From Pirellulales bacterium (lineage in GTDB: Bacteria; Planctomycetota; Planctomycetia; Pirellulales; Lacipirellulaceae), in assembly GCA_963841515.1 (NCBI GenBank), contig CAWJDB010000010.1, positions 431,237-495,236 on the forward strand: a stretch of DNA of 64,000 nt, given 5' to 3'. The position numbers and the translations under genes were made by a program. This document shows positions 7,134 through 48,484 of this stretch, in pieces. Position 1 is the stretch's first letter. The number at the start of each line of letters is the position of its first letter. The notes under the pieces are model-generated. The model had not been told where the DNA came from, did not search any database, and saw only the letters and a list, made by a program, of their open reading frames with translations.

Positions 7134-7136
7134 GCC

Positions 7137-9510: not shown

Positions 9511-9571
9511 CCCGAGGGTAATCGCTTTTCAACCGGGCCGCCAAACCGCCGTCCCCGAAAAGCCAAAGAAT

Positions 9572-10340: not shown

Positions 10341-10369
10341 AAGCTAGTCCAGCCGCCAGGTCGTGTCAA

Positions 10370-10398
10370 GAAAAGTAGAATGTCCCCCTTTTCCTCCC
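10370..10398. repeat. REP-like element copy b (TAGAATGTCCCCCTTTTCCTCCCCC)
   Basis: Reverse complement of copy a. It lies just upstream of the RAYT start. Confidence 0.55.
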
Positions 10399-10618
10399 CC
10401 GACGCTGCGGACCTACGAGATGGTCTGCCTTTATCTGCAAGGCTGGGCCGATCAGCAGGAGCTGTTGGCGCAGCCTCGAAAAACTGAAGCCTCACGTCGC
10501 CTAGGCCCGCTCTTGCTCCCGAGCCGGCTCGCCTGATGCTGCGCCCTTCTGCCGCGCGGGGGCCGCTTCCTGCGCGCCGCCGCCGCCACCTCCTCAAGGC
10601 AGTCGTTTGAACGCGCGC

Positions 10619-10962
10619 TCAACGACCCTCACAATGCCTTGGGGCAACTCCAGAGCCGAACAGCCGTGAGAATGTCCCCTTTCCCCCCTTCGTGGCGAGG
10701 CAGACGATCCCTGCCAAACCCATCAACACGAGGCCGATCGAGGCTGGTTCCGGCACCGATTCTTGGTAGGCATGGGCATAGTCAAACCCGGATGCCGAAA
10801 TGATGGACCATCCCGTGATCGGTTCGCCGGTCAGGGCGTCGGTGACACTCGTGATCCCGCCCCACTTCAGGGTGTTCCCAAAAGCGCCGATGAACGATGT
10901 CTCGAATAGATTCCCATCTGGACCTAACGCAGAATTATAACTGTTGCTGGTTGTCCTACCCT
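10619..10962 (-). pseudogene. C-terminal fragment of a PEP-CTERM protein truncated by the IS66-family insertion; REP copy c (10662..10692) lies in its 3' tail
   Basis: ...QESVPEPASIGLVLMGLAGIVCLATKGG. The ORF continues straight into the IS terminal repeat, and the upstream remainder resumes at 12489. Confidence 0.45.
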
Positions 10963-12488
10963 GTAACCGTTCACGCCCTGGGGAGCAGTGACGGGGCTTT
11001 TTGGCGTGCGAAGTGGGCGTGCACGGCGGCGGCGACGAATTCGAAGGCGTTGCGTTTCTGTTGACGGCAGGTTTCGATGACGGTGAGCATCGTTTCGGCA
11101 AAGCGGCTGCCGCCGGCGCTTTGCGTGCCAAACGAGAGTTTCCGCCAGATCACGGCGTGGCGCAAGGCGCGCTCGCTGGCGTTGTTGGTCGGTTCGACGC
11201 CCTCCACGCGGACGAACGTCCACAGCCAATCGCGATGGTCATAGAGTTCGCGACACATCCCCGCGATCGATCGGTTACCGCTGCTGGCCCCGCGCAGCAG
11301 CACGCGTTCGACCTCGCGGCGGACCGGCGCCATGCGGCGGATGAAGGCCGTCCGCGTGATCGTGCCGTCGCGATAATTGGCCCAATGCTCGAACAGCTTG
11401 CCGGCGGCGCGGCGGAGGTCGTACCCGAGCCGTTTGGCCTGACCGTCGCCGCCGTCGATCAGGGCTTGAAAATCGCGTTTCAAATGCGCCCAACACCATT
11501 GCAAACGGCCGGTGTGCCAGTACATTTTGGCTCGATCGCAGGTCACCACGCCGCCGAACTCCGCCGTGAGCAGATCGACCAGCGCCGTCGCCTCGCGCAT
11601 AGCGCGGACCGCAAACACGGTGAAGGTCCGGGCCACGAACGTCCACAGCCACGCCTTCCTGTTTTGTTCCTTGGTCGCCGTTTCGTCGATGCTCAGTCGG
11701 TCCTGCGTCGGCAGTTGAGCGGCCAACTCGTCGTATGCCGGCCGCAGGGCCGCCGTCGCCTGATGTTGCATCTTCACCGTCAGCGCCGGGCAGCACGGCT
11801 GACCCGCGAGCGCCGAGAAACTCGGCCGTCCGCCGCTTGCTTTGTCGATAGTAGGCCATCAACAAGGCGACCAGCGCCGTCAGCCGCGGACCCGACTGGC
11901 CCTGCGGCACGCCGGCCGGCAACTCCGCGCACGTCGTTTCGCCGCAGCACGGGCACGCCAGCCGATGTCGCCGGTACTCGGTGACGTGCGGCTTGATCTC
12001 GGGCAGTTCCCACACCTGGTGACGCAGCGGGTCGGGATCGCGGCCGGTCAGCTTGCCGCCGCAGCGCCGGCACTCCGCCGGCTTGAGTTCTTGCACCTCG
12101 TCGCAGTCTTCGCTCGGAACGAGCGGCCGCTCGTGTTTCGCGTGGCCCGGTTGACCGCCGCGGCGCTTCGTCGATTTCCGCTTCCGCGGCGGCGGGGCCG
12201 GCCGGGCGTGCGGATGCTGCGTGCTCGGTGGCAGCGAGGAGTTTTGCGGCGTCTTGCCCTTCACTTGTCGTCGCAGGTCGTCCAACTCCGCTCGCAGGTC
12301 GTTCAGCTCCGCCCGCAGCCCGGCGATCTCCGCCAGCAAGACACGGATGATCTCCTGCCCTCCGGCGACTGGCGAGCGATGACGTTATCAGAAACGTTGC
12401 ACCACATGCCCCATGGTGTCGCCGAAAAAGCCAAGGCAAGTAAAGATCAATTTCCCTTCCAAAAGCTCCCCAGGGTGTGAACGGTTAC
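10963..12488 (-). mobile_element. IS66-family insertion sequence (single-ORF type)
   Basis: 24-bp terminal inverted repeats GTAACCGTTCACGCCCTGGGGAGC / GCTCCCCAGGGTGTGAACGGTTAC starting with GTAA. An IS66 transposase lies inside. Confidence 0.7.
10971..12339 (-). pseudogene. IS66-family transposase, split into two frames near 11780
   Basis: The N-terminal zinc-finger/leucine-zipper part is in 11275..12339. The C-terminal DDE part (WAHLKRDF...NNASERALRH) is in 10971..11777. Confidence 0.7.
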
Positions 12489-12721
12489 CATCATGAAGTC
12501 GATGGTAATTAATTCACCCTCGGCCACAAAGAGTGTCACTGGAATCATTCCTGGAGCGGTTTCATTCACATCAACAGTGACGACGGAGCTTTTAGCACCG
12601 CACAAAGAAGGCGCCGTAGGTTGGATCCGGCAAGGGATCCAATCCAGTTACTCTGGCAGCTGTAAGCCTTAAAGTAACCGCGGAAGAGGCCAGGCGATTG
12701 GCGGTGGAAAAAGGTGGCGTC

Positions 12722-31450: not shown

Positions 31451-32551
31451 CTACAACAAATTGACCACACGGTCGGCCAAACCCTTCTCGCCCAGGACCA
31501 CGTTGAGCTTGCCGCTCGCCGCGACACGCTCCAGGACTTCCAGCTCCCGTAGTCGCATGAGCGTCGGGTTGTCGGCCAACAGCCGGGCGGTATTCGCCTG
31601 ACTGCGCATGGCCGCCGTCTCCTCGCGGCGAACGATCAAGTTGGCCTCGGCAGCCTTCTTGGCCTCGGTCACCTTGTTCATCAGGTCCTTCATGTCGCCC
31701 GGCAGGATGACGTCGCGGACGCCCACCGACACGACCGCCAGACCCAACTCGCCGGCGCAACGGCGGACCGCTTCCTCAAACTCGCCGGTGACCACGTCCT
31801 TGTCGGTCAAGAACGAGTCGAGATCGCGAGCCGCCACGACGGCGCGCAACGCCAACTGAGCCTCTCGGTACAGCGACTGCATTGCGCCCTCGGCCACCGT
31901 GACCGACTGCCGCGCATCAGTCACTCGGTAGGTGACGACGGCGTTCATCCGCAGCGTCACCTTGTCGGCGGTCATGATTTCCTGACCGGCGACGTCCAGG
32001 GTCTGCTCGCGGAGGTCGACGTCGACCACTTTTGCGTCGGCCACGCCGCGCCACCAGGCATAGTCGCCCGGGGTAAGCGTTTCGACGTATTCGCCGTCCT
32101 GGAAGGCAACGCCCACGTGGCACCGCGGAACCGAGCAGACGTCGAGCACCTGCGCGGCATGCGGGCTGCGGACAATCACCTTGAAGTCCGGATGCTGGAA
32201 CCGAACTTCGCGGGCGTCGACGACCTCGATGCGCACCTCCTTAACGCCGGTCCAGTACGCATACAGACCCGGCGGCAGGAGGTGGCTGAAGCGACCGTCG
32301 ATCCACACCAGCGCACGCTGGTAGTCCTTTAGGTCGACGACTTCAGCGCGATCGGCTAGGGCGCCGCTCTTGACGATCATGTCGAGCTTTTCGTGCTGGA
32401 GCCACGGAGTGCGCTGCGACACGACGTCGACCTTGACATTCCAGAGCGGGTCAAACAGCCAATGCCGGCCGGCGCCGAGCACGCCGCGGAACTCGCCGTC
32501 GCGGAAGTACAGACCGACTTCGTAAGTGTGGATGTGAATTCGCTTGAACAT
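31451..32551 (-). CDS. SPFH/band-7 (slipin-like) domain protein
   Basis: 366-aa intact ORF starting MFKRIHIHTYEVGLYFRDGEF, with a C-terminal coiled-coil. Confidence 0.65.
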   Translation of the reverse strand: MFKRIHIHTYEVGLYFRDGEFRGVLGAGRHWLFDPLWNVKVDVVSQRTPWLQHEKLDMIVKSGALADRAEVVDLKDYQRALVWIDGRFSHLLPPGLYAYWTGVKEVRIEVVDAREVRFQHPDFKVIVRSPHAAQVLDVCSVPRCHVGVAFQDGEYVETLTPGDYAWWRGVADAKVVDVDLREQTLDVAGQEIMTADKVTLRMNAVVTYRVTDARQSVTVAEGAMQSLYREAQLALRAVVAARDLDSFLTDKDVVTGEFEEAVRRCAGELGLAVVSVGVRDVILPGDMKDLMNKVTEAKKAAEANLIVRREETAAMRSQANTARLLADNPTLMRLRELEVLERVAASGKLNVVLGEKGLADRVVNLL

Positions 32552-32950
32552 GATGGTCGTACCTCCTTTCCTGGAATGTGCGGCGGTTGCCGCAGGAAGA
32601 TCAGGACGATGTGCGTATTCAAATGGTTCGGCGTTGAGCCAAAAAAACCCTCAGGCAACGGAACGAATGACCGATCACGCCTCCGCGCACGGAGTGCTGT
32701 TTGAGCAGTCACGGCCGCAGCGTCGTCCACAGGCTTCCGCCATGTGCATCGCACAGCCTGAGGCCGCGCGACGCCTTCCGGTTTACCGCTTGTTCGTGAC
32801 GCTGCGCAGCGTAAGCGCGGAATCCACGCACTGCATAGCGCCGGTATGCGTTGCCGAAGCGTCATCGCCTCGCCGAAGCGAGAACGACGACGCGCGGCCA
32901 ACCCATCATTCGTCCGTTGCCCTTGGGGTTGCTGGTGCGAGCTTGCGCTC

Positions 32951-33028
32951 GCGGCGGTACGGGAGTCGAACCCGTGACAGCCAGGTTACGAGCCTGGTGC
33001 TCTATCCACTGAGCTAACCTTGGTGGCG
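32951..33028 (-). tRNA. tRNA-Thr(CGT)-like; acceptor stem imperfect (possible pseudo-tRNA)
   Basis: D arm GCTC/GAGC, anticodon arm CCAGG-CTCGTAA-CCTGG, T arm ACGGG-TTCGACT-CCCGT. Only 3-4 of 7 acceptor pairs. Confidence 0.4.
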
Positions 33029-33147
33029 GACGACAATCGCCTTTGCTCGATCCCATGTCCGGAACGCGCGACGCTAACCATGTCACTGAAGCGTGCGCAC
33101 CGCTGGGCCCGGCAACCCTCGACCTTGCTTGAAGCTGCTTGAAAAAA

Positions 33148-33218
33148 GACGCTGACAGGAGTCGAACCTGTTTCAAGCTGCTTTGTAGGCAGCCGCCTCG
33201 CCGTCAGGCTCCAGCGTC
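33148..33218 (-). tRNA. tRNA with anticodon ACA (Cys-type, unusual A34)
   Basis: Perfect acceptor GACGCTG/CAGCGTC, anticodon arm GCTGC-CTACAAA-GCAGC, T arm ACAGG-TTCGACT-CCTGT. Confidence 0.55.
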
Positions 33219-33226
33219 AATAAAAT

Positions 33227-33298
33227 GCCCTCGCCAGGAATCGAACCTGGTCTTCAACCTTCGCACGGTTGCGTGCTGGTCCGGCACACTCCGAGGAC
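33227..33298 (-). tRNA. tRNA-Arg(GCG)
   Basis: Acceptor GTCCTCG/CGAGGGC, D stem GTGT/GCAC, anticodon arm CAACC-GTGCGAA-GGTTG, T loop TTCGATT. Confidence 0.6.
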
Positions 33299-33303
33299 TC
33301 AGT

Positions 33304-33375
33304 ACCCAGTAGAGGAATTGAACCCCTTCTTCGACGTTCGAAGCGTCGCGTGCGATTCCGGCACACTCACCGGGC
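33304..33375 (-). tRNA. tRNA-Arg(TCG)
   Basis: Anticodon arm CGACG-CTTCGAA-CGTCG, T loop TTCAATT, acceptor GCCCGGT/ACTGGGT. Confidence 0.6.
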
Positions 33376-33381
33376 GAAAGC

Positions 33382-33453
33382 GTCTCGACTAGGATTCGAA
33401 CCTAGACCCGCCGCTTAGGACGCGGCTGTGCGTTCCCGTAACGCTTCCGAGAC
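33382..33453 (-). tRNA. tRNA-Arg(CCT)
   Basis: Acceptor GTCTCGG/TCGAGAC, D stem GCGT/ACGC, anticodon arm GCCGC-GTCCTAA-GCGGC, T arm CTAGG-TTCGAAT-CCTAG. Confidence 0.65.
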
Positions 33454-33459
33454 TCAAGG

Positions 33460-33530
33460 GCCGGCGATAGGATTCGAACCTACATTGGGCTCATTACAAA
33501 TGAGCTGCTTCCCCATCAAGCCACGCCGGC
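33460..33530 (-). tRNA. tRNA-Thr(TGT)
   Basis: Perfect cloverleaf: acceptor GCCGGCG/CGCCGGC, D GCTT/AAGC, anticodon GCTCA-TTTGTAA-TGAGC, T GTAGG-TTCGAAT-CCTAT. Confidence 0.8.
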
Positions 33531-33539
33531 ATAGGAAGC

Positions 33540-33608
33540 AGGCCCGCCAGGATTTGAACCCGGTGCGTCAGTTTTGGAGGCTGACTGCTCTCCCAGGAGC
33601 ACGGACCT
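33540..33608 (-). tRNA. tRNA-like gene with 9-nt anticodon loop (CCTCCAAAA); identity unclear
   Basis: Acceptor AGGTCCG/CGGGCCT, D arm GCTC-CTGGGA-GAGC, stem GTCAG/CTGAC, T arm CCGGG-TTCAAAT-CCTGG. Confidence 0.4.
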
Positions 33609-33646
33609 GTAAAAGCACCCGGGCGGCCGACCCGGCGCCGATCAAA

Positions 33647-34237
33647 TCACTTCTGCAATTCCACGTTCCAGTACGCCTCGCTGATGAACTTCGACCAACT
33701 CTCAAGACGAACCTGCTGATCGGCGTACACCGGCCTCCACGTTGGACACGTCGGCGCCTTCTTGAGGTTCATGTCCGCCTGCTTCGGCGTCCGGTCGGCC
33801 TTACGCTTATTGCAGGCAATGCAGGCGAGAACGCAGTTCGTCCAGCTCGAAACGACTCCCCGAGCGCGAGGAACCACGTGGTCGATCGTGAGCTCTTCGC
33901 CGCCCGGGTTGACGCCGCAATACTGGTACTGAAAGCGATCTCGCTTATAAATGTTCCGCCGACCGAACGTCACCGCTCTGATCGGCAATCGATCGAAACC
34001 CGTGCGCGTGATGACTTCCGGCACGCGCAACCGGAAGTTAACGCCGCTCATGAACGGAGCTCCGTCCCGCGGTCGCAGCCGCGACCAATCGTCCCACGAG
34101 AACGTCTGGTAATCGGCCGCGTCGACGACGCGCAGCATCTTTCCACAACAGCACGAGCGCACGCGCTGTGGTCGCGACGTGCACGGGCTGCCAGTTCTTG
34201 TTCAGAACGAGCACAGGTTGTTGTAGTGAAGTCATAG
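33647..34237 (-). pseudogene. HNH endonuclease embedded in the tRNA array; frameshift near 34140
   Basis: N-terminus MTSLQQPVLVLNKNWQPVHVATTARALVLL in 34038..34334. HNH core YQYCGV...LTIDHVVPRARGG..CVLACIACNKRKADR in 33647..34162. Confidence 0.65.
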
Positions 34238-34249
34238 CTACTCCCATGC

Positions 34250-34337
34250 GGAATGGGCAGGATTCGAACCTGCAAGGCTGTTGAAGGCTCGGCCGGCTTC
34301 CAAGTGGGGTTTCGTCGCCAAGTCGATTTGCCATTCC
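34250..34337 (-). tRNA. Class II (long variable arm, 88 nt) tRNA; anticodon not resolved (Leu/Ser-type)
   Basis: Perfect acceptor GGAATGG/CCATTCC, T arm GCAGG-TTCGAAT-CCTGC. Confidence 0.5.
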
Positions 34338-34348
34338 GTGTTGTCAGC

Positions 34349-34419
34349 CGCCCGCCGATGATTCGAACATCGCCTCACGATTTAGAAGATCGTCGTGCGT
34401 TCCACCACACTCGCGAGCG
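34349..34419 (-). tRNA. tRNA-Arg(TCT)
   Basis: Acceptor CGCTCGC/GCGGGCG, D GTGT/GCAC, anticodon ACGAT-CTTCTAA-ATCGT, T CGATG-TTCGAAT-CATCG. Confidence 0.75.
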
Positions 34420-34423
34420 CAGG

Positions 34424-34496
34424 GTGACCGAGCGGACTCGAACCGCCTCATACCTGGTTCACAGCCAGGCCCCTCGACCACTTCGGGATCGGTCAC
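34424..34496 (-). tRNA. tRNA-His(GTG)
   Basis: Acceptor GTGACCG/CGGTCAC, discriminator C, anticodon CCTGG-CTGTGAA-CCAGG, T loop TTCGAGT. Confidence 0.7.
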
Positions 34497-34499
34497 AGC

Positions 34500-34584
34500 G
34501 GAAGGCATGGGATTTGAACCCACACGGCTATTACGCCGCACGGTTTAGCAAACCGGCCCGACAAACCGTATTCGGCTACCTTCC
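34500..34584 (-). tRNA. tRNA-Ser(GCT), class II
   Basis: 85 nt. Acceptor GGAAGGT/GCCTTCC, anticodon CGGT-TTGCTAA-ACCG, variable arm CGGC-GTAATA-GCCG, T GTGGG-TTCAAAT-CCCAT. Confidence 0.7.
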
Positions 34585-34592
34585 GTTCGAGT

Positions 34593-34662
34593 GGAGCGCC
34601 GGGGAATCGAACCCCGATTTCCTGAGTGCAAACCAGGCGTCGTCCCGTTGGACCAGCGTCCC
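34593..34662 (-). tRNA. tRNA-Ala(TGC) with G3:U70
   Basis: Anticodon CCTGG-TTTGCAC-TCAGG, T CGGGG-TTCGATT-CCCCG. Short D loop and one acceptor mismatch. Confidence 0.55.
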
Positions 34663-34675
34663 GTACTTTTGAGTG

Positions 34676-34746
34676 GAGGATACCGGTCTCGAACCGGTGA
34701 CCTACAGACTGCCAGGCGAGTCGCTCACCCAACTGAGCTAATCCCC
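34676..34746 (-). tRNA. tRNA-like with 8-nt anticodon loop CGCCTGGC (GGC/Ala-like?)
   Basis: Acceptor GGGGATT/TATCCTC, D GCTC-AGTTGGGT-GAGC, stem GACT/AGTC, T ACCGG-TTCGAGA-CCGGT. Confidence 0.4.
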
Positions 34747-34751
34747 CGACA

Positions 34752-34821
34752 GGCCCAAGCGAGAATCGAACTCGCACCACCGCACTACCAATGCGGTGCT
34801 CTGCCACTGAGCTATCAGGCC
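34752..34821 (-). tRNA. tRNA-Thr(GGT)
   Basis: D GCTC-AGTGGCA-GAGC, anticodon CCGCA-TTGGTAG-TGCGG, T GCGAG-TTCGATT-CTCGC. Confidence 0.75.
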
Positions 34822-34825
34822 GTGG

Positions 34826-34894
34826 GGGGACATGGGAGTCGAACCCAATGTTTCAAGCTTATGAGGCTTCCGTGAAACCGTTTCACTCGTCCCC
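34826..34894 (-). tRNA. tRNA-Met(CAT)-type
   Basis: Acceptor GGGGACG/TGTCCCC, anticodon AAGC-CTCATAA-GCTT, T loop TTCGACT. The D arm is short. Confidence 0.55.
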
Positions 34895-34900
34895 GTCAGT

Positions 34901-34971
34901 AGTCCCTGCTGGAATCGAACCAGCTGTCTTCTCCGTGTCATGGAGACGCCGTGCCGGTGGGCCAAGGGACT
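34901..34971 (-). tRNA. tRNA-Val(GAC)
   Basis: Perfect acceptor AGTCCCT/AGGGACT, anticodon TCTCC-ATGACAC-GGAGA, T GCTGG-TTCGATT-CCAGC. Confidence 0.75.
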
Positions 34972-34980
34972 ACACGAGTG

Positions 34981-35054
34981 GTCGGGAGAGGGCTTCGAAC
35001 CTCCAAAATCACCGCGCTCTTGACGCGATCGCTTTTCCAGTTTGCGTACCCGAC
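34981..35054 (-). tRNA. tRNA-like; anticodon loop TCAAGAG (AAG with C33?) uncertain
   Basis: Acceptor GTCGGGT/TCCCGAC (6 of 7 pairs), palindromic stem CGCG/CGCG, T loop TTCGAAG. Confidence 0.35.
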
Positions 35055-35060
35055 CGAAGT

Positions 35061-35128
35061 AGCTAGCCCCGGAGTTGAACCGAGCGCGCCGAGCTTATGG
35101 GGCTCAAGTGGGCCAACCTGCGCTAGCA
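35061..35128 (-). tRNA. tRNA(CAT)-like with C33 and a compact D arm
   Basis: Anticodon TGAGC-CCCATAA-GCTCG, variable GCGCG, T CTCGG-TTCAACT-CCGGG, palindromic acceptor GCTAGC. Confidence 0.45.
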
Positions 35129-35130
35129 AT

Positions 35131-35202
35131 GACCCAAGCGGGATTCGAACCCGCGATTCCCGCCTTGAGAGGGCGGCGACTACTCCGCAAGTCCACTGGG
35201 CC
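35131..35202 (-). tRNA. tRNA-Glu(CTC)
   Basis: Acceptor GGCCCAG/TTGGGTC, anticodon CCGCC-CTCTCAA-GGCGG, T GCGGG-TTCGAAT-CCCGC. Confidence 0.7.
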
Positions 35203-35210
35203 ATATAAGT

Positions 35211-35297
35211 GAGACGTGAAGGAATCGAACCTCGCGTCGCCACCCCGCTGTTTAGTGACTCGTGTTCTACAGACACGGCCGCGAGGGAACGCCTCTC
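35211..35297 (-). tRNA. tRNA-Tyr(GTA), class II; acceptor with two mismatches
   Basis: 87 nt. Anticodon CGTGT-CTGTAGA-ACACG. D region TTCCC..GG and T arm GAGG-TTCGATT-CCTTC resemble bacterial tRNA-Tyr. Confidence 0.55.
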
Positions 35298-35304
35298 GTC
35301 GAGT

Positions 35305-35379
35305 GCCAAGGGCGGGAGTCGAGCCCGCGGAGTCACGAAGGTTTGAGCTTCGCCGCTTTCCCTGTTGCGTACCTTGGCA
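35305..35379 (-). tRNA. Class I tRNA with anticodon CAA (Leu codon UUG; unusual because Leu tRNAs are normally class II)
   Basis: Perfect acceptor GCCAAGG/CCTTGGC, anticodon CGAAG-CTCAAAC-CTTCG, T GCGGG-CTCGACT-CCCGC. Confidence 0.55.
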
Positions 35380-35385
35380 GCAAGC

Positions 35386-35459
35386 GCCCCCGACGCGATT
35401 TGAACGCGCGATCTCCTGCGTGACAGGCAGGCGTCCACTCCGGGCTGGACCACGAGGGC
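35386..35459 (-). tRNA. tRNA-Asp(GTC)
   Basis: D GTCC-AGCCCGGAGT-GGAC, anticodon CCTGC-CTGTCAC-GCAGG, T loop TTCAAAT. Confidence 0.75.
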
Positions 35460-35465
35460 AATAGT

Positions 35466-35540
35466 ACCGGCGGCAGGATTCGCTCTCTGCACTGTTCTCG
35501 TTCTAAGCGAGACGCCTCCTTCCGTTGGGCTACGCCGGCT
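35466..35540 (-). tRNA. Class I tRNA-like with anticodon TAG (Leu codon CUA) and an aberrant 10-nt T loop (AGAGCGAATC)
   Basis: Acceptor GCCGGCG/CGCCGGT, anticodon TCTCG-CTTAGAA-CGAGA. Confidence 0.45.
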
Positions 35541-35545
35541 TAAGT

Positions 35546-35617
35546 CGTCCCGAGTGGACTCGAACCACTGATCGTCTCCTTGTAAGGGAGCTGCCTTTGC
35601 CGCTAGGCCACGGGACG
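35546..35617 (-). tRNA. tRNA-Val(TAC)
   Basis: Perfect acceptor CGTCCCG/CGGGACG, anticodon CTCC-CTTACAA-GGAG, T AGTGG-TTCGAGT-CCACT. Confidence 0.7.
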
Positions 35618-35623
35618 TAAGGC

Positions 35624-35709
35624 GGAAGCGGTGAGACTCGAACTCACAAGCGGGTATAAGCCGCCAGCCGTTTTCAAGACGGTTTCCTCAGCCATTCGGA
35701 TCACTTCCG
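35624..35709 (-). tRNA. tRNA-Ser(TGA), class II
   Basis: 86 nt. Acceptor GGAAGTG/CGCTTCC, anticodon CCGT-CTTGAAA-ACGG, T GTGAG-TTCGAGT-CTCAC. Confidence 0.65.
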
Positions 35710-35714
35710 TAAGC

Positions 35715-35785
35715 AGCGGCGGTCGGTATCGAGCCGACTCCAACTGCTTCAAAGGCAGTCATGCTGACCTTTACACCACGCCGCA
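35715..35785 (-). tRNA. tRNA-Gln(TTG)
   Basis: Anticodon ACTGC-CTTTGAA-GCAGT, T GTCGG-CTCGATA-CCGAC, acceptor GCGGCG/CGCCGC. Confidence 0.65.
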
Positions 35786-35792
35786 CCAAACA

Positions 35793-35861
35793 GGCTGAGC
35801 GCCGAATCGAACGGCGTCCGACTGGTTCAGAGCCAGTCGTGCGACCACTACACCAGGGGCC
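35793..35861 (-). tRNA. tRNA-Gln(CTG)-like with defective acceptor stem (pseudo-tRNA or indel error)
   Basis: Anticodon ACTGG-CTCTGAA-CCAGT, T GCCG-TTCGATT-CGGC. The 5' GGCCCCT and 3' GCTCAGCC ends do not pair. Confidence 0.35.
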
Positions 35862-35864
35862 AAT

Positions 35865-35934
35865 ACGGGTGCGCGGAATTGAACCGCGGCTGTCAGTTTG
35901 GAAGACTCGCCGTGCTGCCGCTACACCACACCCG
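35865..35934 (-). tRNA. tRNA-Trp(CCA)-like; the 3' strand of the anticodon stem is scrambled
   Basis: Acceptor GCGGGTG/CACCCGT, D GTGT/GCAC, loop TTCCAAA after GAGTC, T CGCGG-TTCAATT-CCGCG. Confidence 0.4.
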
Positions 35935-35942
35935 CAGAAGCG

Positions 35943-36025
35943 GAAGCGGCAGGAGTTGAACCTGCAAGGCAGTTACGCTCGACTGTTTTCGAAACAGCTG
36001 CCGTCGCCAATCGGCTGGCGCTTCC
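35943..36025 (-). tRNA. tRNA-Ser(CGA), class II
   Basis: Perfect acceptor GGAAGCG/CGCTTCC, anticodon GCTGT-TTCGAAA-ACAGT, T GCAGG-TTCAACT-CCTGC. Confidence 0.65.
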
Positions 36026-36032
36026 ATGAAGC

Positions 36033-36108
36033 TGCGGAGGCTGGGATCGAACCAGCGCACGAACGTGTTTAACAGACACGCGCAACTACCAGCAGTTGCC
36101 CCTCCGCA
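36033..36108 (-). tRNA. tRNA-Asn(GTT)
   Basis: D CAAC-TGCTGGTA-GTTG, anticodon CGTGT-CTGTTAA-ACACG, T GCTGG-TTCGATC-CCAGC. Confidence 0.7.
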
Positions 36109-36115
36109 AAGGAGT

Positions 36116-36188
36116 CTGCGCGGTCGGATTTGAACCGACGATCTCGACGCCCCGAACGTCGCGGGATGCCCAACTTCCCCACGCGCAG
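36116..36188 (-). tRNA. tRNA-Pro(CGG)
   Basis: Perfect acceptor CTGCGCG/CGCGCAG, D GGGA/TCCC, anticodon CGACG-TTCGGGG-CGTCG, T GTCGG-TTCAAAT-CCGAC. Confidence 0.75.
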
Positions 36189-36197
36189 TCAAACGAA

Positions 36198-36267
36198 GCA
36201 TCCGGCGGGTTACGATCCCGCACCTCCACCTTGGCAAAGTAGCGTGCAACCACTACACCACGGACGC
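36198..36267 (-). tRNA. tRNA-Gly(GCC) with unusual T loop ATCGTAA
   Basis: Acceptor GCGTCCG/CGGATGC, D GTGT/GCAC, anticodon CTACT-TTGCCAA-GGTGG (two G-U pairs). Confidence 0.55.
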
Positions 36268-36298
36268 AGTTTTGGCTTGTCAAATTGTCAAAGACCAA

Positions 36299-36370
36299 AG
36301 GATCGGGTCAGAATCGCTCGTGACGTTGCGACGGTACGAGCGTCGCGTCTTACTACTAGACGACAGATCC
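36299..36370 (-). tRNA. tRNA-Thr(CGT)-like with variant T loop CGAGCGATTC
   Basis: D GTCT-AGTAGTA-AGAC, anticodon CGACG-CTCGTAC-CGTCG, acceptor GGATCTG/CCGATCC (one mismatch). Confidence 0.45.
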
Positions 36371-36381
36371 AGGTTTGCAGT

Positions 36382-36452
36382 GGGGCTGGTGAGAGTCGAA
36401 CTCACAACGTCCTGGTTAAAAGCCAGGTGCTTGGCCTTTCAGCTTCAACCCC
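36382..36452 (-). tRNA. tRNA-Lys(TTT)
   Basis: Acceptor GGGGTTG/CAGCCCC, anticodon CCTGG-CTTTTAA-CCAGG, T GTGAG-TTCGACT-CTCAC. Confidence 0.7.
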
Positions 36453-36461
36453 ATGTCAAGT

Positions 36462-36534
36462 TGGCGGCCTGGGAATCGAACCCAGATCGTCGAGTTAATA
36501 AGACCCAACAGGTCAAGTGAGACCGTCGCCGCCC
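36462..36534 (-). tRNA. tRNA-like, anticodon probably TAT (Ile AUA-type) in loop CTTATTA; 1:72 mismatch
   Basis: Stem TGGGT/ACTCG with two G-U pairs, T CTGGG-TTCGATT-CCCAG. Confidence 0.4.
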
Positions 36535-36537
36535 AAT

Positions 36538-36610
36538 GGCTTCGGCGAGATTCGCGCCTCGCACCAAATCGATTAAAAGTCGAGTATGCTGCCGTTGACA
36601 CCACGAAGCC
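36538..36610 (-). tRNA. tRNA-Lys(TTT)-like with 8-nt T loop GCGCGAAT
   Basis: Perfect acceptor GGCTTCG/CGAAGCC, anticodon TCGA-CTTTTAA-TCGA. Confidence 0.5.
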
Positions 36611-36669
36611 GATTCAGGCTCGCGACGTCGCGTTTCATTCGAAGTTGCATATCGTTTCTCCTAACAAGT

Positions 36670-36740
36670 GGTAGCCCTGCGAATCGAACGCAGCGCAACT
36701 CGCTTATCAGGCGGATTTGGGCAACCAGCCCTCGACTACC
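36670..36740 (-). tRNA. tRNA-Ile(GAT)
   Basis: Anticodon loop CTGATAA, T CTGCG-TTCGATT-CGCAG, 3' end GGCTACC-A resembles bacterial tRNA-Ile. Confidence 0.65.
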
Positions 36741-36754
36741 GTCGTCGTGTATCA

Positions 36755-36860
36755 GTCGGGCGCCTCGGGGTCGAACCGCCAGTATTCAATTTGTTGGCTC
36801 CTGCTCCCATGGCTCACCGTGCTCCCATCTGCACCTCCGCCCGATTACAAGTCAGCATGG
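36755..36860 (-). other. Unresolved spacer with a T-loop-like motif (GGCGGTTCGACCCCG); possibly a degenerate or indel-damaged class II tRNA
   Basis: No consistent cloverleaf could be drawn. Confidence 0.2.
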
Positions 36861-36865
36861 CAAGT

Positions 36866-36939
36866 ACCCTGTGGGGGATTCGAACCCGCCTCCTGCGGCT
36901 TGAAAGGCCGCCATCCTAAAACCAGTAGACCAACAGGGC
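36866..36939 (-). tRNA. tRNA-Glu(TTC)
   Basis: Anticodon GCGGC-CTTTCAA-GCCGC. The D region GTCT...AGGA matches the bacterial tRNA-Glu pattern. Confidence 0.65.
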
Positions 36940-36999
36940 GTGTTAAGTCGTTTCGTGTTTCTTAAGTTGAGTTTTTGCGCGCACCGCAAGCGCATTAGT

Positions 37000-37070
37000 G
37001 GGCTGGGAGGCGCTCGAATCCTCGTCTGTGGTTCTTCAGACCGCCGCTAGACCGTCTCAGCTACCAGCCC
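37000..37070 (-). tRNA. tRNA-Phe(GAA); first gene of the array
   Basis: Perfect acceptor GGGCTGG/CCAGCCC, D GCT/AGC, anticodon GCGGT-CTGAAGA-ACCAC, T loop with a 2-nt insertion (ATTCGAGCG). Confidence 0.6.
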
Positions 37071-37087: not shown

Positions 37088-37128
37088 GCGTGCGACGAGG
37101 CCAACAAAAAAGGCCCGGCGTCACGTTG
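37088..37128 (-). terminator. Rho-independent terminator (minus strand) upstream of the tRNA array; terminates the DUF1080 gene
   Basis: Hairpin AAGGCCTGGCGTCA-ACG-TGACGCCGGGCCTT followed by TTTTTTG on the minus strand. Confidence 0.6.
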
Positions 37129-37527
37129 ACGCCAGGCCTTGGTGGCTCACTTAAGAGTTTGGCCGAGCGTCATAGGCGCCTTCTATCGTTGGCGGGCGCA
37201 TAACCGGACTGTTCGTTCGCCCCTTGGGTGAACGGCAAGCCGGCGCTCCCTTGCGGCAAACTCGCCGCCGCGAGCACTGAGCGTATGAGACTCGACCGAA
37301 ACATGGATGGCACTCCTCCTAATGAAATATACCCGGCAGATCGCTTTGCGTTTCTCTGATAACTATAGATGTCGGATAATAACCGAAGTTCGCGCAGTCT
37401 TTTCGGAAAAACTGGGAATTTGGAAACTTTCTTCGATTACCCAAATTGCTCGCTGGCGCCGGCTGAACCCGTACTTATCGGTAAGCGAACCCGCTCTCGC
37501 TATCCTGCGAGGCTATCCGAAACCTGT

Positions 37528-43410: not shown

Positions 43411-44508
43411 ATGAAACACCTGCAGATCTCCAGCTTGCTTGAGCGTCGCATTCTGAAGGGCGACTACGCCAAGACCGGGCTTCCAGCCGAGCGTGATTTG
43501 GCCGATGAAATCGGCGTTAGTCGCGTAACGCTCCGCAAGGCCCTCGACGACTTAGGACGCAAGGGGCTAGTCGAACGCTCCCCCAATCGGCGACTGGCGC
43601 TAGCCGCCAGGGTCGGATCGGATTCGTTCGGACCCGAAATTGCCTTTCTGACGCCGTCAATCGCGCCCGACTCTTTTTCGCCTGACCTTCAGCAGTGGCT
43701 GGCGATGGCGGAGCACGTCGCCCGACAGCACAAGGCGCGCATCCGTGTGCTCAATTACAAGCATTGGGACGATCCCGTCCTCACCGAATCTCTGCGCACC
43801 TATCCCGGAGTGCTGCTGGTGACGAGCGCCGAGCCGATTCCGCTCTGGACTTCCAAGCTTCTTGCGCAAGCGGACGGGCTGGTCGTGCTCTCCGAAGACC
43901 TGACGCACTTGGGCATACCATCCGTCGTGCTCTTTCCGCCGCGGTGCACCAAAACGATGCTCGACCGATTGGCACAGCTCAGCCATAAGCGCATCGACTG
44001 TCTCAACGTGCAGGGCCATAACTCGATTACCGTGGCGCGCATCGACGCGTGGCGAGGCTGGTCGGCGTCGAAAGGGGGAACCGGCGAGTTATTTGACGAT
44101 CCCTGCCCCGGCGATTTCAGTATTTTTGAATGGGGCGTCCAGAGCGCCAAACGCTGGCTTGAGCAGACTTCGCCCGAAACAACCGCTGTCATGTGCGTTA
44201 CCTTGCCTGGGGCGCTGGGCGCCTTACGAGCGGCCAGGGATAGCGGGCTTGAAGTTGGCAAGGACCTCTCGGTCTGTACGATCGACAGTGAAGGCCTGGG
44301 CAAATATCTTGGCCCCTCGATAACTTCCTTCGAGCGGCCCAATGCGCAACCTTATCTCTCGATTTGCTTCGACTGGATTGTCGGCGGCGGAAAAAAAGAG
44401 AAGTGGGACCGCCCGCTCTTGATTGAACCGCGAAATTTGCGGTTGTTTCAAGGCGACTCCACCGGGCCCGTCGCCAAAAAACGCGCTAAGAGACGCTCGA
44501 CGCGTTAG
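43411..44508 (+). CDS. Transcriptional regulator: GntR-type N-terminal HTH fused to a LacI/periplasmic-binding-protein-like sugar-binding domain
   Basis: LPAERDLADEIGVSRVTLRKALDDL, then a ~300-aa PBP-like region. Confidence 0.55.
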   Translation: MKHLQISSLLERRILKGDYAKTGLPAERDLADEIGVSRVTLRKALDDLGRKGLVERSPNRRLALAARVGSDSFGPEIAFLTPSIAPDSFSPDLQQWLAMAEHVARQHKARIRVLNYKHWDDPVLTESLRTYPGVLLVTSAEPIPLWTSKLLAQADGLVVLSEDLTHLGIPSVVLFPPRCTKTMLDRLAQLSHKRIDCLNVQGHNSITVARIDAWRGWSASKGGTGELFDDPCPGDFSIFEWGVQSAKRWLEQTSPETTAVMCVTLPGALGALRAARDSGLEVGKDLSVCTIDSEGLGKYLGPSITSFERPNAQPYLSICFDWIVGGGKKEKWDRPLLIEPRNLRLFQGDSTGPVAKKRAKRRSTR

Positions 44509-46589
44509 ACGCCGGGGTGATCGCGGCGACGGCGGCGGCGGCGGCCTGCCTGGCGTCCAGGGAAAGACCAACCTCGCCTCTTTGGCTGGCGAAGTGTGCG
44601 CGGGCGTCGGCGACGATGCGATCTGATTCGTTAAGATGACGCAGCCACCCGAAGTACAGCATGCCCAAAGCGCCAGCGACGATCAGCAGACACACGCCGC
44701 TCGTTGTCCAACTGTGAATCACCGTCAGCATTGGCGTCAAGATGATCATCACTTGGAACAGTAACGCCACAGGCAGCGCAGCGATGTCGCGCCGGTGCTC
44801 TGCCGTCACCCGGGCCCGGAGCCACGTAGGCAGCTCTCGCGAATACGGCTTCCATAAGCCGAACGGAAGCGTCGACTGGTAGAAACGGCGCAGCACCGCG
44901 TCGGGCGTGGGCGCCGAGGCCAACGAGCCCGCAATTCCCGCGGCCAGCCCCACGGCGCCCAGCAAAGGCAGCAACCACGATTCTTGCTGCAGGAAGCTCC
45001 AAGTCGCCCCCAGCCACGGCGCCGCGAAGCGGACCAGGACGGCCGCCGCGACCCCCGCGAGGGTTCCGGCGGTATAGCCGACGCCGTTGAAACGACGCCA
45101 ATAAAGCGGCAGGAGTTGCGGCATCATCATGCCGCTGCCCAGTCCCATGATGATCCAGGCCCAAACGTCATTGATGCTTGGCACCGAAAAGGCGAACAAG
45201 AAGCCAGCCGTCACCATGGAGCCGATGAACAGCCAGCTCACGATCATCATCTCCGATACTGTCGCCGCCGAGCGGAAATGTTTCTGATAGATATCGTGGA
45301 CGAAGAACCCCGCCGATTGATTGACCCACGCCCCAAATCCCGCCATGGCGGCCGCGATTAACGACACCACCATCAAGCTGCGAAATCCGGGGGGGATTTT
45401 CAGCAGCAAGACGGCGGGCATGATGCGCTCGGGATTGATGTTGCCGTGGGAGCCCACCAGCAGCAGCTTGGTTTGCCACTGGTCGCCCAATATTTCGCGC
45501 AACTTCGCAGTGAAATCCGACGGGAAGGCTTCCGGGTGATTGGCGATTTTCGAGGTAATCGTCGCCCAATTCTGGTCAGACGCCGAAACGTGCGACTGCA
45601 CGACTTCGCCAGCCTCGCGGACCGCGGCGCCATCAGGGAAAAGCTGGTTCACCACTCCCAAACCCAGCACGGCGATGCCGACCATCATCGGCCAGCGGAA
45701 CGAAATGAGGCAAATCCATAGAAAGGTGAGTTTGCCGCAGTCGGCGTCGCTGCGTGCGGCGAAGTATTTGGGATCATCGCCGGCGCCCATGCCAAACAGG
45801 ATGTTGCGCAGCAGGTAGAGGCAAGCACAAAGCGCCAGCGATCGGTAGGGTTCGTAGCCCGCTGGCATGACGGCGTGGACCGTCGGCGCCGCGGCGGTCC
45901 AAGCGGGATTCATTGTCACCTTCCGCGCCAGATCTGCGAGCGACTCGACGGCCGAGGTTTGGTGCGCCTAAGACAATGATCGTAATCGCGGCCGCAATGA
46001 CGATTCCCATCTGTACCAGGTGGATGATCACGACCCCGTAGAATCCTGAGAACATCGAGTAAACGGTGGCGCTGACTACGAGTACTAGCGCGCAGGTGGC
46101 CGGCGAGAAGGGTACGAAGGTGGACAAGAAGAGCCCGATACCCTTCACCAAATAAGCGATCATCCCAGTGGTCACGACAATGCCCGCGAGGGCGCGCGCC
46201 GCCTGCGCCATTCGGCCAGCCGTGCCGTCGCCAAACCGAAAGATCATCCATTCGGCCCCGGTCAAACAACCGGAGCGGCGATGCCACTTGCCGGCCCATA
46301 GCATGGTGACCGCCAGCACGAGGACCGCTCCCCCGCGGAACTCGATGAAAAGCCCGCGCGGCCCGAGCAAATACAGGAACGACACGATGATCATCGTGCC
46401 GGCCAGGTCCCAGAAGTCCATCACGCCCGAGACGCCGAGCATCCACCAGGGCATCGACCGTCCGCCGATGAGGTATTGCTCCAGACTCGCCGAAGCCCGG
46501 CGCTTAAGATGGAAACCCAAGGTGACGATGACCGCCAGATATAGCGCGATGATCGCGTAGTCGATTCCATTGAGGTAGTTCTCGCCCAC
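44486..46589 (-). pseudogene. Sodium:solute symporter (SSF) family transporter; frameshift near 45930
   Basis: ORFs 45774..46589 (N-terminal TM helices) and 44486..45919 (rest). Multi-TM throughout. Confidence 0.55.
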
Positions 46590-48341: not shown

Positions 48342-48409
48342 AAAAACGCCGCACCGCCTAACGTCGGCAGGTGACAGAAACCCTTGTCCGGCGTGGACTT
48401 CGATCTACT

Positions 48410-48484
48410 ACGCGCGGCAGGAGTCGAACCTGCAACCCCGGGCTTCGTAGGCCCGTGCTCTATCCAGTTGAGCTACGCGCGCTC
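48410..48484 (-). tRNA. tRNA-Arg(ACG)
   Basis: GCGCGCG-TA-GCTC-AACTGGATA-GAGC-A-CGGGC-CTACGAA-GCCCG-GGGT-TGCAG-GTTCGAC-TCCTGC-CGCGCG. Confidence 0.8.

Follow-up and report, generated by a model that had tools for sequence, protein, structure and literature searches.

The window (the whole 64,000-nucleotide stretch of Pirellulales DNA analysed here) carries on its minus strand, from 37070 to 33147, an array of about 39 tRNA slots with an embedded HNH endonuclease gene, in which ARAGORN makes 29 calls. Arrays with identical gene order, counted as such where at least eight co-oriented tRNAs stood in the same order, were found at no fewer than 60 fetched Planctomycetota loci, with 43 co-oriented tRNAs in the fullest (L124), 41 in L123, 39 in L093 and 36 in L166. 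The closest arrays, used for comparison with the window, are L166, L165 and L167. Coordinates in the initial annotation proved correct to 1-3 nt; all genes, and the leader and flanking features described below, are on the minus strand.

The array opens with tRNA-Phe(GAA) (36998-37070; ARAGORN, Rfam 46.8 bits), tRNA-Glu(UUC) (36864-36939; ARAGORN and Rfam, 50.7 bits), a remnant described below and tRNA-Ile(GAU) (36668-36740; ARAGORN; 89% identity to L166). A tRNA-Lys(UUU) of 61.8 bits (36380-36452) occupies an ancestral Lys-CUU slot (C34->U), its nearest relatives being Lys-CUU genes (85%). Both ARAGORN and Rfam call Gly(GCC) with T loop AUCGUAA (36197-36267), Gly(UCC) (35863-35936), Asp(GUC) (35384-35459), Glu(CUC) (35129-35203), Val(GAC) (34899-34971), Ala(UGC) (34591-34662; 99% identity to L166), His(GUG) (34422-34496) and Thr(UGU) (33458-33530). 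ARAGORN also calls Pro(CGG) (36114-36188; 53.9 bits, 95% identity to L166), Asn(GUU) (36031-36108), the class II genes Ser(CGA) (35940-36025), Ser(UGA) (35621-35708) and Ser(GCU) (34498-34584), Gln(UUG) with T loop CUCGAUA (C54; 35713-35785), Arg(UCU) (34347-34419), Arg(CCU) (33380-33453) and Arg(UCG) (33302-33375). Val(UAC) (35544-35617) reaches 61.2 bits in Rfam and Thr(GGU) (34751-34821) 65.1 bits, the top score of the array. Two tRNA-Met(CAU)-like genes are called by ARAGORN at lowered threshold: one with a reduced D arm in a conserved slot (35059-35128), the other scoring 36 bits in Rfam (34824-34895). The nearest neighbours of the window's array genes form a mosaic.

Upstream of the first tRNA is a conserved leader (37110-37260) with a box, (A/G)TGACGCT(C/T)GGCC, and a 13-14 bp hairpin followed by a U run (37140-37110), a terminator-like site; leader and hairpin are kept in 16 arrays, with four pairs changed on both sides. 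The array would be transcribed through this leader as a single minus-strand unit, and because the leader bears a terminator the array is probably off by default. One possibility, by analogy with the Anabaena trn operon, is that it is induced by translational stress. Downstream, a conserved non-coding block (32846-33105) contains an acceptor-less tRNA-like body (32956-33019; Rfam tRNA, 51.6 bits) that matches model positions 5-66 and has CGU at the anticodon position; across 17 loci its D, anticodon and T stems are invariant and its anticodon triplet is variable. It had been taken for a pseudo-tRNA, but is a strongly conserved element rather than a decayed array gene. Beyond it lies an SPFH/Band_7 gene (31451-32551; Pfam Band_7), with counterparts of 70-73% amino-acid identity at the corresponding place in no fewer than 10 other arrays. 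Elsewhere in the window, an SSF symporter gene (44486-46589) is split by a frameshift into two frames.

The most probable reading, at roughly three chances in four, is that a tRNA array of about 43 genes, common to many Planctomycetota, is present here in a partly decayed copy. The region would be this genome's version of the long HNH-linked "L-array". Such arrays are already published, with up to 43 genes, a linked HNH gene and Planctomycetes among the phyla listed (PMC8421152), as are planctomycete "degenerate tRNA gene clusters" carrying tRNA-Ile(UAU) (PMC4807772). The fullest array appears to be a nearly complete decoder set using only G34, U34 and C34 anticodons (16, 13 and 13 in L124, with no A34), in which Arg would be decoded by GCG instead of ACG, and AUA by Ile-UAU. 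The C34 anticodons listed in the initial annotation are all present, and the full C34 set is a trait of the array family, but by these counts C34 is not enriched. The Arg(GCG) gene that had been pointed out is indeed in the array (33226-33298; ARAGORN, Rfam), and 35 distinct orthologues keep its anticodon; an Arg-ACG gene of canonical form, scoring 66 bits, is found outside the array at 48409-48482.

The array is probably supernumerary to the housekeeping tRNAs, a status resting on that one outside tRNA in the 64-kb window and on published genomes. That it is instead the organism's primary tRNA gene set is highly improbable: nearly every amino acid is covered, and synteny with the conserved SPFH gene in many lineages looks like vertical inheritance, but a high-scoring Arg-ACG stands outside the array, cultured planctomycetes carry canonical tRNAs elsewhere and treat the clusters as dispensable (PMC4807772), the window has dead slots for Tyr, Ser-GGA and Pro-UGG and lacks several for Leu, Val and Arg, and HNH orthologues of no more than 65% identity often lack an adjoining array.

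The oddities of this partly decayed copy are of two kinds, conserved family traits and local damage, and none resembles a suppressor or recoder. The former include type I (short-variable-arm) tRNAs with Leu anticodons, four of which are conserved in the array family. The window's are CAA (35303-35378; ARAGORN), with A73, a Leu-type D arm and T loop CUCGACU (C54); UAG (35465-35539; Rfam 40.9 bits), with A73; and AAG (34978-35055; ARAGORN and comparison). The first two had been noticed earlier and the third missed. In an alignment of 36 type I Leu sequences, 98.4% of cells are paired and 17 of 21 pairs have changed on both sides; none of 500 shuffles reaches the observed pairing, and slid controls are 36-52% paired. 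Compensatory changes are also present among the 29 distinct orthologues of Leu-CAA. The elements that mark leucine identity in E. coli (A73, A14, A15-U48, G18G19, A20a) are preserved in these tRNAs. The class switching seen in the initial annotation is real, but is not decay: to judge from the alignments, the short-arm architecture, with its Leu-type D arm and A73, is an ancestral trait under structural selection. The tRNAs may well be charged with leucine, although this is not assured, since a Streptomyces type I tRNALeu was not charged by E. coli LeuRS (PMC6614811).

Other peculiarities are also shared. In tRNA-Trp(CCA) (33538-33608; ARAGORN), which has A1-U72, G73 and a one-nucleotide connector, the supposed 8-9-nt anticodon loop is a normal 7-nt CUCCAAA whose closing pair is mismatched (C31·A39), as it is in many independent assemblies; its features recur in L165, L167, L085, L002, L007 and others. 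The odd T arm of tRNA-Phe, GAGG-AUUCGAGCG-CCUC with A53·G61, is found family-wide, and G55 T loops occur in the family's Thr-UGU and Met slots; in 36 of 43 Thr-UGU sequences G55 coincides with a D loop that has lost its GG. The second "expanded" anticodon loop, in the Ala(GGC) slot (34673-34747; ARAGORN "???(gg)"; G3·U70), is likewise not expanded: the 3' strand of the anticodon stem is broken, identically in L166, while L001 has a normal Ala-GGC. Across 24 tRNAs, 114 of 480 stem pairs differ between the window and L166, 81 doubly compensated, 16 single wobble-type and 17 broken, counts that cover ARAGORN-callable genes and so lean toward intact stems; many double changes between such close relatives may come partly from recombination between arrays rather than stepwise compensation. 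Since compensatory substitutions maintain them, the type I Leu, Trp, Phe and G55 traits point to selection rather than decay.

Further lesions are confined to the window's lineage. Two anticodons have changed from G34 to A relative to L166: Cys GCA to ACA (33147-33218; ARAGORN; 93% identity to L166 Cys-GCA; U run after the gene) and Leu GAG to AAG, in the gene at 34978-35055, which also has an 8-nt T loop, UUCGAAGC. The ACA anticodon had been singled out as sitting on a perfect cloverleaf, and so it does, with U73. This, together with the conservation of the short-arm Leu tRNAs and the fact that misacylation of array tRNAs has been considered for Anabaena (PMC8421152), could be taken to suggest working recoders: frameshift suppressors with expanded loops, an inosine-forming Cys-ACA reading UGA, or Leu-anticodon tRNAs mischarged for deliberate mistranslation. 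Such roles are very doubtful, however: no anticodon in the array reads a stop codon, neither "8-9-nt" loop is expanded, ACA and AAG each arose by one transition confined to this lineage, A34 being absent from the fullest array, the Leu tRNAs retain their leucine identity set, and the host's use of codons is unremarkable (76% end in G/C, and UGU makes up 21% of Cys codons).

The suggestion of a decaying redundant array, by contrast, is supported by comparison with L166, L165 and L167: about ten slots of the window are decayed or missing. The Pro(UGG) remnant (36755-36843), with no ARAGORN or Rfam call, has U33->A and a 14-nt insertion when aligned with the intact L166 gene; Ser(GGA) (34250-34337; weak Rfam match), intact in L166, lacks the 5' strand of its anticodon stem; and Thr(CGU) (36300-36370), recognised by sequence reading, has lesions that are also apparent on alignment with L166. 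Tyr(GUA) (35210-35296), class II-like and 89% identical to L166, gives a weak Rfam tRNA-Sec match of 18.3 bits. Gln(CUG) (35793-35862), rightly suspected of being decayed, has acceptor mismatches, a partial Rfam match of 33.1 bits and an ARAGORN call at lowered threshold only. The UAU anticodon proposed at 36462-36534 is present in a loop CUUAUUA, and the slot belongs to the family, with orthologues scoring up to 71 bits; read from the sequence, the window's copy is degenerate (U37, no G18G19 in the D loop, a D-stem mismatch) and goes uncalled by default ARAGORN and Rfam.

An expanded T loop common to several genes had also been reported, and in three array genes the T loop does measure 8 nt and follow the pattern G(A/C)GCGA(A/U)U: the Lys(UUU) slot at 36537-36610 (GCGCGAAU; Rfam 40.1 bits), the Thr(CGU) remnant at about 36300-36370 (GAGCGAUU), and Leu-UAG (GAGCGAAU, with an A53·C61 mismatch), whose orthologues carry GGUUCGAAUCC. 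In a tRNA context G(A/C)GCGAAU was found in no array other than the window's; the Lys-UUU loop elsewhere is UUCGAAU (L166 and L167) or UGCAACU (L002). T54/T55 is replaced in at least six of the window's T loops, and at least three genes besides these three have lost T54. That three independent T loops reached a near-identical 8-nt sequence is not predicted by simple random decay. One possibility is that the T-loop and wobble changes are adaptive, allowing evasion of a nuclease or modification enzyme that recognises T54-Psi55 or G34, or that a variant T loop spread by gene conversion; the Lys-UUU T stem is preserved by compensatory change while its loop is altered, and the family already tolerates conserved G55 T loops. 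This seems unlikely, given that the same lineage also lost its HNH gene along with some ten other slots, the affected genes score low or are uncalled, no other array has these loops, and no enzyme or toxin partner was identified. The window-specific variants would rather be neutral damage under relaxed selection than new decoders, and this copy of the array is, by comparison with its relatives, an eroded version of the family array.

The HNH gene (33647-34235; Pfam HNH) is a predicted pseudogene: a 2-nt deletion in a CGCGCG run, seen in DNA alignment with L166, splits it into separate ORFs, and in the family alignment invariant Cys104 is Tyr (C104Y) and invariant Gly128 is Val (G128V). Because the SSF symporter is also frameshift-split, this deletion, the +1 T loops and other window-only indels could be assembly errors. 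Extended to the oddities as a whole, the idea that indel or consensus errors of a long-read metagenome assembly made the odd loops, broken stems and HNH frameshift is improbable: several window-only lesions are indeed +1 or -2 nt length changes, but neither frameshift lies in a homopolymer, the HNH gene also has its two missense changes, and the 8-nt T loops are substitutions plus an insertion. The Trp mismatch, Phe T arm, broken Ala-GGC arm, type I Leu genes and Arg-GCG recur in independent assemblies, so that the expectation that re-sequencing would restore canonical forms fails for such shared traits, window-only indels excepted.

The arrays themselves are already described, and a bacterial type I tRNALeu is known in Streptomyces; what is modestly new is that a set of four type I Leu tRNAs is conserved. 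For the HNH protein 3156 relatives were found, the top ones 66-85% identical and named from Planctomycetaceae. Kinship to known L-arrays shows in its 32-36% identity to HNH genes of Nostoc, Mycobacterium and Variovorax plasmids, in a type I Leu-UAA of 75 nt within a Nostoc plasmid array, and in the three short Leu tRNAs of a Polyangia array.

The unusual tRNA genes of the window form a single array at 33147-37070, in which ARAGORN called 29 genes, every one on the minus strand. When degenerate genes recovered by a looser scan, by ARAGORN at a lowered threshold, or by reading the sequence directly are added, about 39 slots (ancestral gene positions) lie within 3.9 kb, separated by spacers of mostly 2-10 nt and following an isoacceptor order without a repeating unit. 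In size the array exceeds the threshold of at least 20 tRNA genes at 2 or more per kb set for long, HNH-linked arrays, or L-arrays (Tran et al., 2016; PMC4758250), and as in these the genes are co-oriented, close enough for co-transcription, and not periodic. The linked HNH gene is also present, though as a pseudogene: its ORF, inside the array at 33647-34235 (minus strand; Pfam HNH at 33647-34162), is split over two frames. The Rfam tRNA model exceeds its gathering score at 24 sites in the window; within the array its scores run from below threshold up to 65 bits, with 15 slots uncalled or under the gathering score. Array tRNAs thus score lower than the canonical tRNA-Arg(ACG) outside the array (48409-48482; 66 bits; ARAGORN and Rfam), as is typical of planctomycete degenerate clusters. 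The array may be supernumerary to a housekeeping tRNA set, as this outside gene and published planctomycete genomes (PMC4807772) suggest. The G+C content is about 59% in the array and about 64% in its flanks, whose genes (3-keto-disaccharide hydrolase, GH99, PEP-CTERM proteins, an SPFH/Band_7 protein) look like ordinary planctomycete chromosome. The array is a further example of a known accessory kind, and its main value lies in the comparative findings.

The window HNH protein, once its frame was repaired, has 3156 relatives, of which the best are 66-85% identical and the named ones among these are from Planctomycetaceae. DNA fetched from around these relatives, in genomes and metagenomes, yielded 60 loci with at least eight co-oriented tRNA genes in the gene order of the window, the fullest having 43 (L124), 41 (L123), and 39 (L093) genes; where HNH identity falls to 65% or below, an adjoining array is often lacking. 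The family order is Phe, Glu-UUC, Pro-GGG, Pro-UGG, Ile-GAU, Lys-UUU, Ile-UAU, Lys-CUU, Thr-CGU, Gly-GCC, Pro-CGG, Asn, Ser-CGA, Gly-UCC, Gln-UUG, Gln-CUG, Ser-UGA, Ser-GGA, Val-CAC, Leu-UAA, Leu-UAG, Asp, Leu-CAA, Tyr, Glu-CUC, Leu-CAG, Met, Leu-GAG, Val-GAC, Thr-GGU, Ala-UGC, Ala-GGC, Ser-GCU, Arg-UCU, and His, then the HNH gene, and past it Trp, Thr-UGU, Arg-CCU, Arg-CCG, Arg-UCG, Arg-GCG, and Cys-GCA. Two oddities of composition noted in the initial annotation find their explanation here. The C34 anticodons it listed are present, but the array is “C34-rich” only in being a near-complete set: L124 has 16 G34, 13 U34, 13 C34, and no A34 anticodons. Arg-GCG does occur in the array, and is the normal family state (35 distinct orthologues).

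The nearest relative of the window tRNAs varies by slot: L166 for His, Ala-UGC, and Ser-GCU (97-99% identity), L165 for Trp and Asp (97-99%), and L002 for Glu-UUC and Asn (92%), while other slots are merely 54-66% identical to L166. This mosaic of sequence kinships suggests recombination between arrays. In L002, an integrated element (6918-12591) encoding a tyrosine integrase and TraG and TrwC-like proteins truncates the array past Thr-UGU; the 3' part of the array is therefore an integration site. One Pirellulales MAG has two HNH-linked arrays, on contigs L007 and L008, one with 35 tRNA calls and the other with 8; these fit segmental duplication then decay, as reported for planctomycete clusters.

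Short-arm tRNAs with the Leu anticodons CAA and UAG, reported from the initial reading of the window, are indeed there, together with a third, AAG. They had been taken for class switching; comparison with other arrays shows a conserved family feature instead. In every lineage Leu-UAA, -UAG, -CAA, and -GAG measure 74-80 nt, only 4-8 nt of which form the variable loop, and so are type I, with a Leu anticodon and a variable loop of at most 10 nt; short loops in the window are those of the CAA, UAG, and AAG/GAG genes, the UAA genes being found in other arrays. Leu-CAG alone retains a short class II arm (82-86 nt). Kept in 36 sequences are a 3-bp D stem, an 11-nt D loop (D arm UACGCAAAYNGGNAAAGCG), a U preceding the T stem, and A73, and the array type I tRNAs have the leucine identity set of E. 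coli (A73, A14, A15-U48, G18G19, A20a; PMC9976931). In the alignment of these 36, standard pairs fill 98.4% of cells and both sides have changed in 17 of 21 pairs; none of 500 shuffles matches the observed values, and slid partners pair only 36-52% of the time. Judged from these patterns of pairing and conservation, the short-arm architecture is an ancestral, selected feature of the family, not class switching by decay. The window's own copies are probably impaired, all three having T-loop damage.

Would such tRNAs be charged with leucine? According to published work, E. coli LeuRS does not need the long arm when charging its own tRNA, and the type I tRNALeu(CAA) of Streptomyces coelicolor, which likewise has a short variable loop and coexists with long-arm tRNALeu, is charged by its own LeuRS and not by that of E. 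coli (Fan et al., 2019; PMC6614811). The S. coelicolor tRNA is a single housekeeping isoacceptor of demonstrated leucylation, whereas in the array family four accessory isoacceptors (UAA, UAG, CAA, GAG) have the short arm. Beyond the Planctomycetota, a Nostoc plasmid array beside a related HNH gene has a 75-nt Leu-UAA, and of the Leu tRNAs in a Polyangia array three are short. The trait is not universal in arrays, since the Leu tRNAs of an Acidiphilium plasmid array are all shortened class II (82-84 nt). A review of tRNA identity describes tRNALeu as long-armed everywhere but in animal mitochondria (PMC9976931), and in our incomplete coverage of the literature no account of array-borne type I Leu tRNAs as a set of four was found. 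Selection keeps a whole short-arm Leu set in the accessory arrays of three or more phyla.

Other peculiarities are confined to the window, as judged by alignment with the closest arrays, L166 (HNH DNA 84% identical), L165, and L167. The ACA anticodon was correctly described as lying on a perfect cloverleaf, with U73, but this is the Cys slot: the gene is otherwise 93% identical to its L166 counterpart, and 30 distinct orthologues carry GCA, with ACA confined to the window. The Leu-GAG slot has similarly become AAG, with an additional T-loop base, in the window only, and is GAG in 30 orthologues. Bacterial tRNA-Arg(ACG) is a case of conserved A34; wobble decoding through A34 or I34 is not indicated for Cys-ACA or Leu-AAG, as A34 is not kept in the orthologues of either. 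The two expanded anticodon loops proposed in the initial annotation, which had suggested frameshift suppressors, did not survive alignment. In the Trp gene the loop is the standard 7-nt CUCCAAA and its closing pair is the mismatch C31·A39, which along with A1-U72 and G73 is a family trait of tRNA-Trp, and in the Ala-GGC slot (34673-34747) it is the 3' side of the anticodon stem that is unpaired; neither gene has an anticodon loop of 8 nt or more on an intact stem. The broken Ala-GGC arm is common to the window and L166, and is therefore older than their split.

Variant T loops were rightly noticed: three are 8 nt long and fit the pattern G(A/C)GCGA(A/U)U. In the Leu-UAG, Lys-UUU, and Thr-CGU slots, the T-loop UU is replaced by GAG or GCG, a motif absent from tRNA context in every other array compared. 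In these three slots (Lys-UUU at 36537-36610, Thr-CGU at 36300-36370, Leu-UAG at 35465-35539; minus strand), UUCGAAU has become the near-identical 8-nt GCGCGAAU, GAGCGAUU, and GAGCGAAU. Such convergence is not predicted by simple random decay; possible causes are gene conversion and some process acting on specific sequences. Further T-loop changes are C54 in Leu-CAA and Gln-UUG, and AUCGUAA as the loop of Gly-GCC. The Pro-UGG slot has U33A and a 14-nt insertion, Ser-GGA has lost its anticodon stem, Tyr has decayed, and the gene at 35793..35861, suspected from the start of being a pseudo-tRNA, is a decayed Gln-CUG; Leu-UAA, Leu-CAG, Pro-GGG, Val-CAC, and Arg-CCG are missing. The UAU gene that had been proposed is present, but too degenerate to be called: this is the Ile-UAU slot (36462-36534, minus strand), whose orthologues elsewhere are canonical and score up to 71 bits. 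From the HNH gene 2 nt have been deleted, within a CGCGCG run, and its protein has Tyr and Val at columns invariantly Cys and Gly in 20 relatives.

Sequencing or assembly errors may account for some window-only indels. An SSF symporter gene in the same window (44486-46589, minus strand) is likewise frameshift-split, into two overlapping ORFs in different frames that separately carry Pfam SSF positions 1-164 and 276-406; it is either a pseudogene or the product of an assembly indel, and so bears on the trust to be placed in the others. Its frameshift is, however, not in a homopolymer, and the T-loop insertions and the HNH deletion are accompanied by substitutions, which argues for real mutations. 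Traits common to independent assemblies are not sequencing errors. The oddities first noted are thus for the most part real. Between the two interpretations first offered for the strange tRNAs, decay of a redundant array holds for the window-specific features, and the reading of them as suppressors or recoders does not: this is a partly decayed accessory array of known kind, with no hidden change of the genetic code. A decay index counting per-locus deviations at columns at least 90% conserved was dropped: its consensus is dominated by one well-sampled clade, and the window's minority clade scores high on deviations for that reason. Substitution rates by tRNA region were uninformative.

The array is bracketed by conserved elements. 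Upstream, a leader at 37110-37260 (minus strand), aligned with those of 16 other arrays, contains a box, (A/G)UGACGCU(U/C)GGCC, and a 13-bp terminator-like hairpin with a U run, which in 16 arrays ends 4-60 nt ahead of tRNA-Phe and shows some covariation. Most arrays leave no room for a promoter past the hairpin, so transcription must read through it, an arrangement that suggests gated expression and would fit an array kept silent by default and induced under translational stress, as in Anabaena; a search of the array strand yielded no sigma-70-type promoter. In the window's clade, an ORF of 7-8 codons (MTLGQTLK) stops 10-14 nt ahead of the hairpin; a check for a leader peptide found its reading frame not conserved in other clades. 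Downstream, a non-coding block of about 260 nt (32846-33105, minus strand) follows the last array gene, tRNA-Cys, and is conserved in 17 loci, being found also at L093:6124-6383, L123:6224-6483, L166:4894-5153, and 13 others. Within it is a tRNA-like body (32956-33019, minus strand) that has the same D, anticodon, and T stems in all 17 loci, while the acceptor pairs over only 3 bp and the triplet in the anticodon position varies freely (GUG, CGU, GUA, ACA, AAG, AGG, UUU, and others). The block matches no Rfam family besides the tRNA model, and may be a processing signal or a leader for the SPFH gene. That gene (SPFH/Band_7; 31451-32551, minus strand) always lies beyond the array and block, in at least 10 loci (L004, L023, L092, L093, L095, L096, L101, L120, L123, L149) at 70-73% amino-acid identity; such synteny suggests long vertical descent within the clade, against which the frequent lack of an array beside more distant HNH orthologues and the mosaic kinship of the slots point toward the horizontal spread known from L-arrays. 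Leader, tRNA-like element, and SPFH gene offer handles for testing when and how the arrays are expressed.

L-arrays have up to 43 genes and a linked HNH gene, are supernumerary, and stay silent until translational stress; Planctomycetes are among their listed hosts (PMC8421152, PMC4758250). The window array resembles those of the Anabaena sp. PCC 7120 trn operon type (Santamaria-Gomez et al., 2021, and Tran et al., 2016; same sources) in its dozens of co-oriented, dense, non-periodic tRNAs, some of them pseudogenes, and shares a short-arm Leu tRNA with the Nostoc plasmid array. Its HNH protein is of the same family as those of Nostoc, Mycobacterium, and Variovorax plasmids (32-36% identity to Nostoc plasmid copies). 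A linked SPFH/slipin gene is a further likeness to Anabaena, where a slipin gene, alr0740, belongs to the TrcR regulon, as do the tRNA array and the HNH gene linked to it (PMC10272220). L-arrays are, however, scattered on plasmids, whereas this one is chromosomal and syntenic across a planctomycete clade; its gene order differs, its HNH gene is not upstream but internal, with His or Ser-GGA on one side and Trp on the other, and a terminator-bearing leader stands in place of the TrcR-type promoter repeats of Anabaena. The degenerate tRNA clusters of planctomycetes, of 2-28 genes with a “highly canonical” Ile-UAU (Kim et al., 2016; PMC4807772, S2 Text), are similar in phylum, in their low-scoring, part-degraded, fast-evolving tRNAs, and in a single Ile-UAU slot, though in the window Ile-UAU is itself degenerate; that paper nowhere mentions an HNH gene, and does not describe short-arm Leu tRNAs or conserved flanking elements. 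Mycobacterium array units, found on chromosomes, plasmids, and phages and more widely linked to HNH than to any other gene (Morgado and Vicente, 2018; PMC5966550), are also large and HNH-linked, with HNH homologues on Mycobacterium and Mycolicibacterium plasmids, but differ by description in phylum, gene order, and carriers. A phage origin was considered and rejected, the best phage HNH match (44% identity, in a 595-kb uncultured phage) having no adjoining array. No tRNAs were found near the HNH loci of Tsukamurella and Methylobacterium plasmids.

One tentative possibility, to which we would give roughly three chances in ten, is that the arrays are a conserved stress-translation module, with short-arm Leu tRNAs as an L-array hallmark. 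A terminator-gated leader would control some 43 idiosyncratic tRNAs. With no A34 among their anticodons, these would make up a self-contained decoder set that included four natural type I tRNALeu species and dispensed with both TadA (through Arg-GCG) and lysidine (through Ile-UAU); the embedded HNH gene and an acceptor-less tRNA-like element leading into the SPFH gene would complete it. Short-arm Leu tRNAs, being found also in the Nostoc-plasmid and Polyangia arrays, would be general to L-arrays. If this is true, the rule that bacterial tRNALeu is always long-armed would be overturned, and the arrays would not be junk.

For the study of how tRNAs can be built, the family also supplies natural experiments: D arms of reduced size, A53·G61, and G55 where G18 has been lost. 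A T arm with A53·G61 is a family trait of tRNA-Phe. U55 is near-universal in T loops, but in many arrays the T loops of the Thr-UGU and Met-CAU slots read UGCRA, with G55 (e.g., L007:5706-5778 and L036:2508-2581). Among 43 distinct Thr-UGU sequences, 36 combine G55 with a lost D-loop GG, and six UUC sequences keep the GG, a pattern in the alignments that resembles covariation between the tertiary partners G18 and U55. Between the window and L166, 114 of 480 stem pairs differ in the 24 tRNAs callable for comparison, 81 of them doubly compensated and 17 broken; given the mosaic kinship of the slots, some of the double changes may stem from recombination between arrays.
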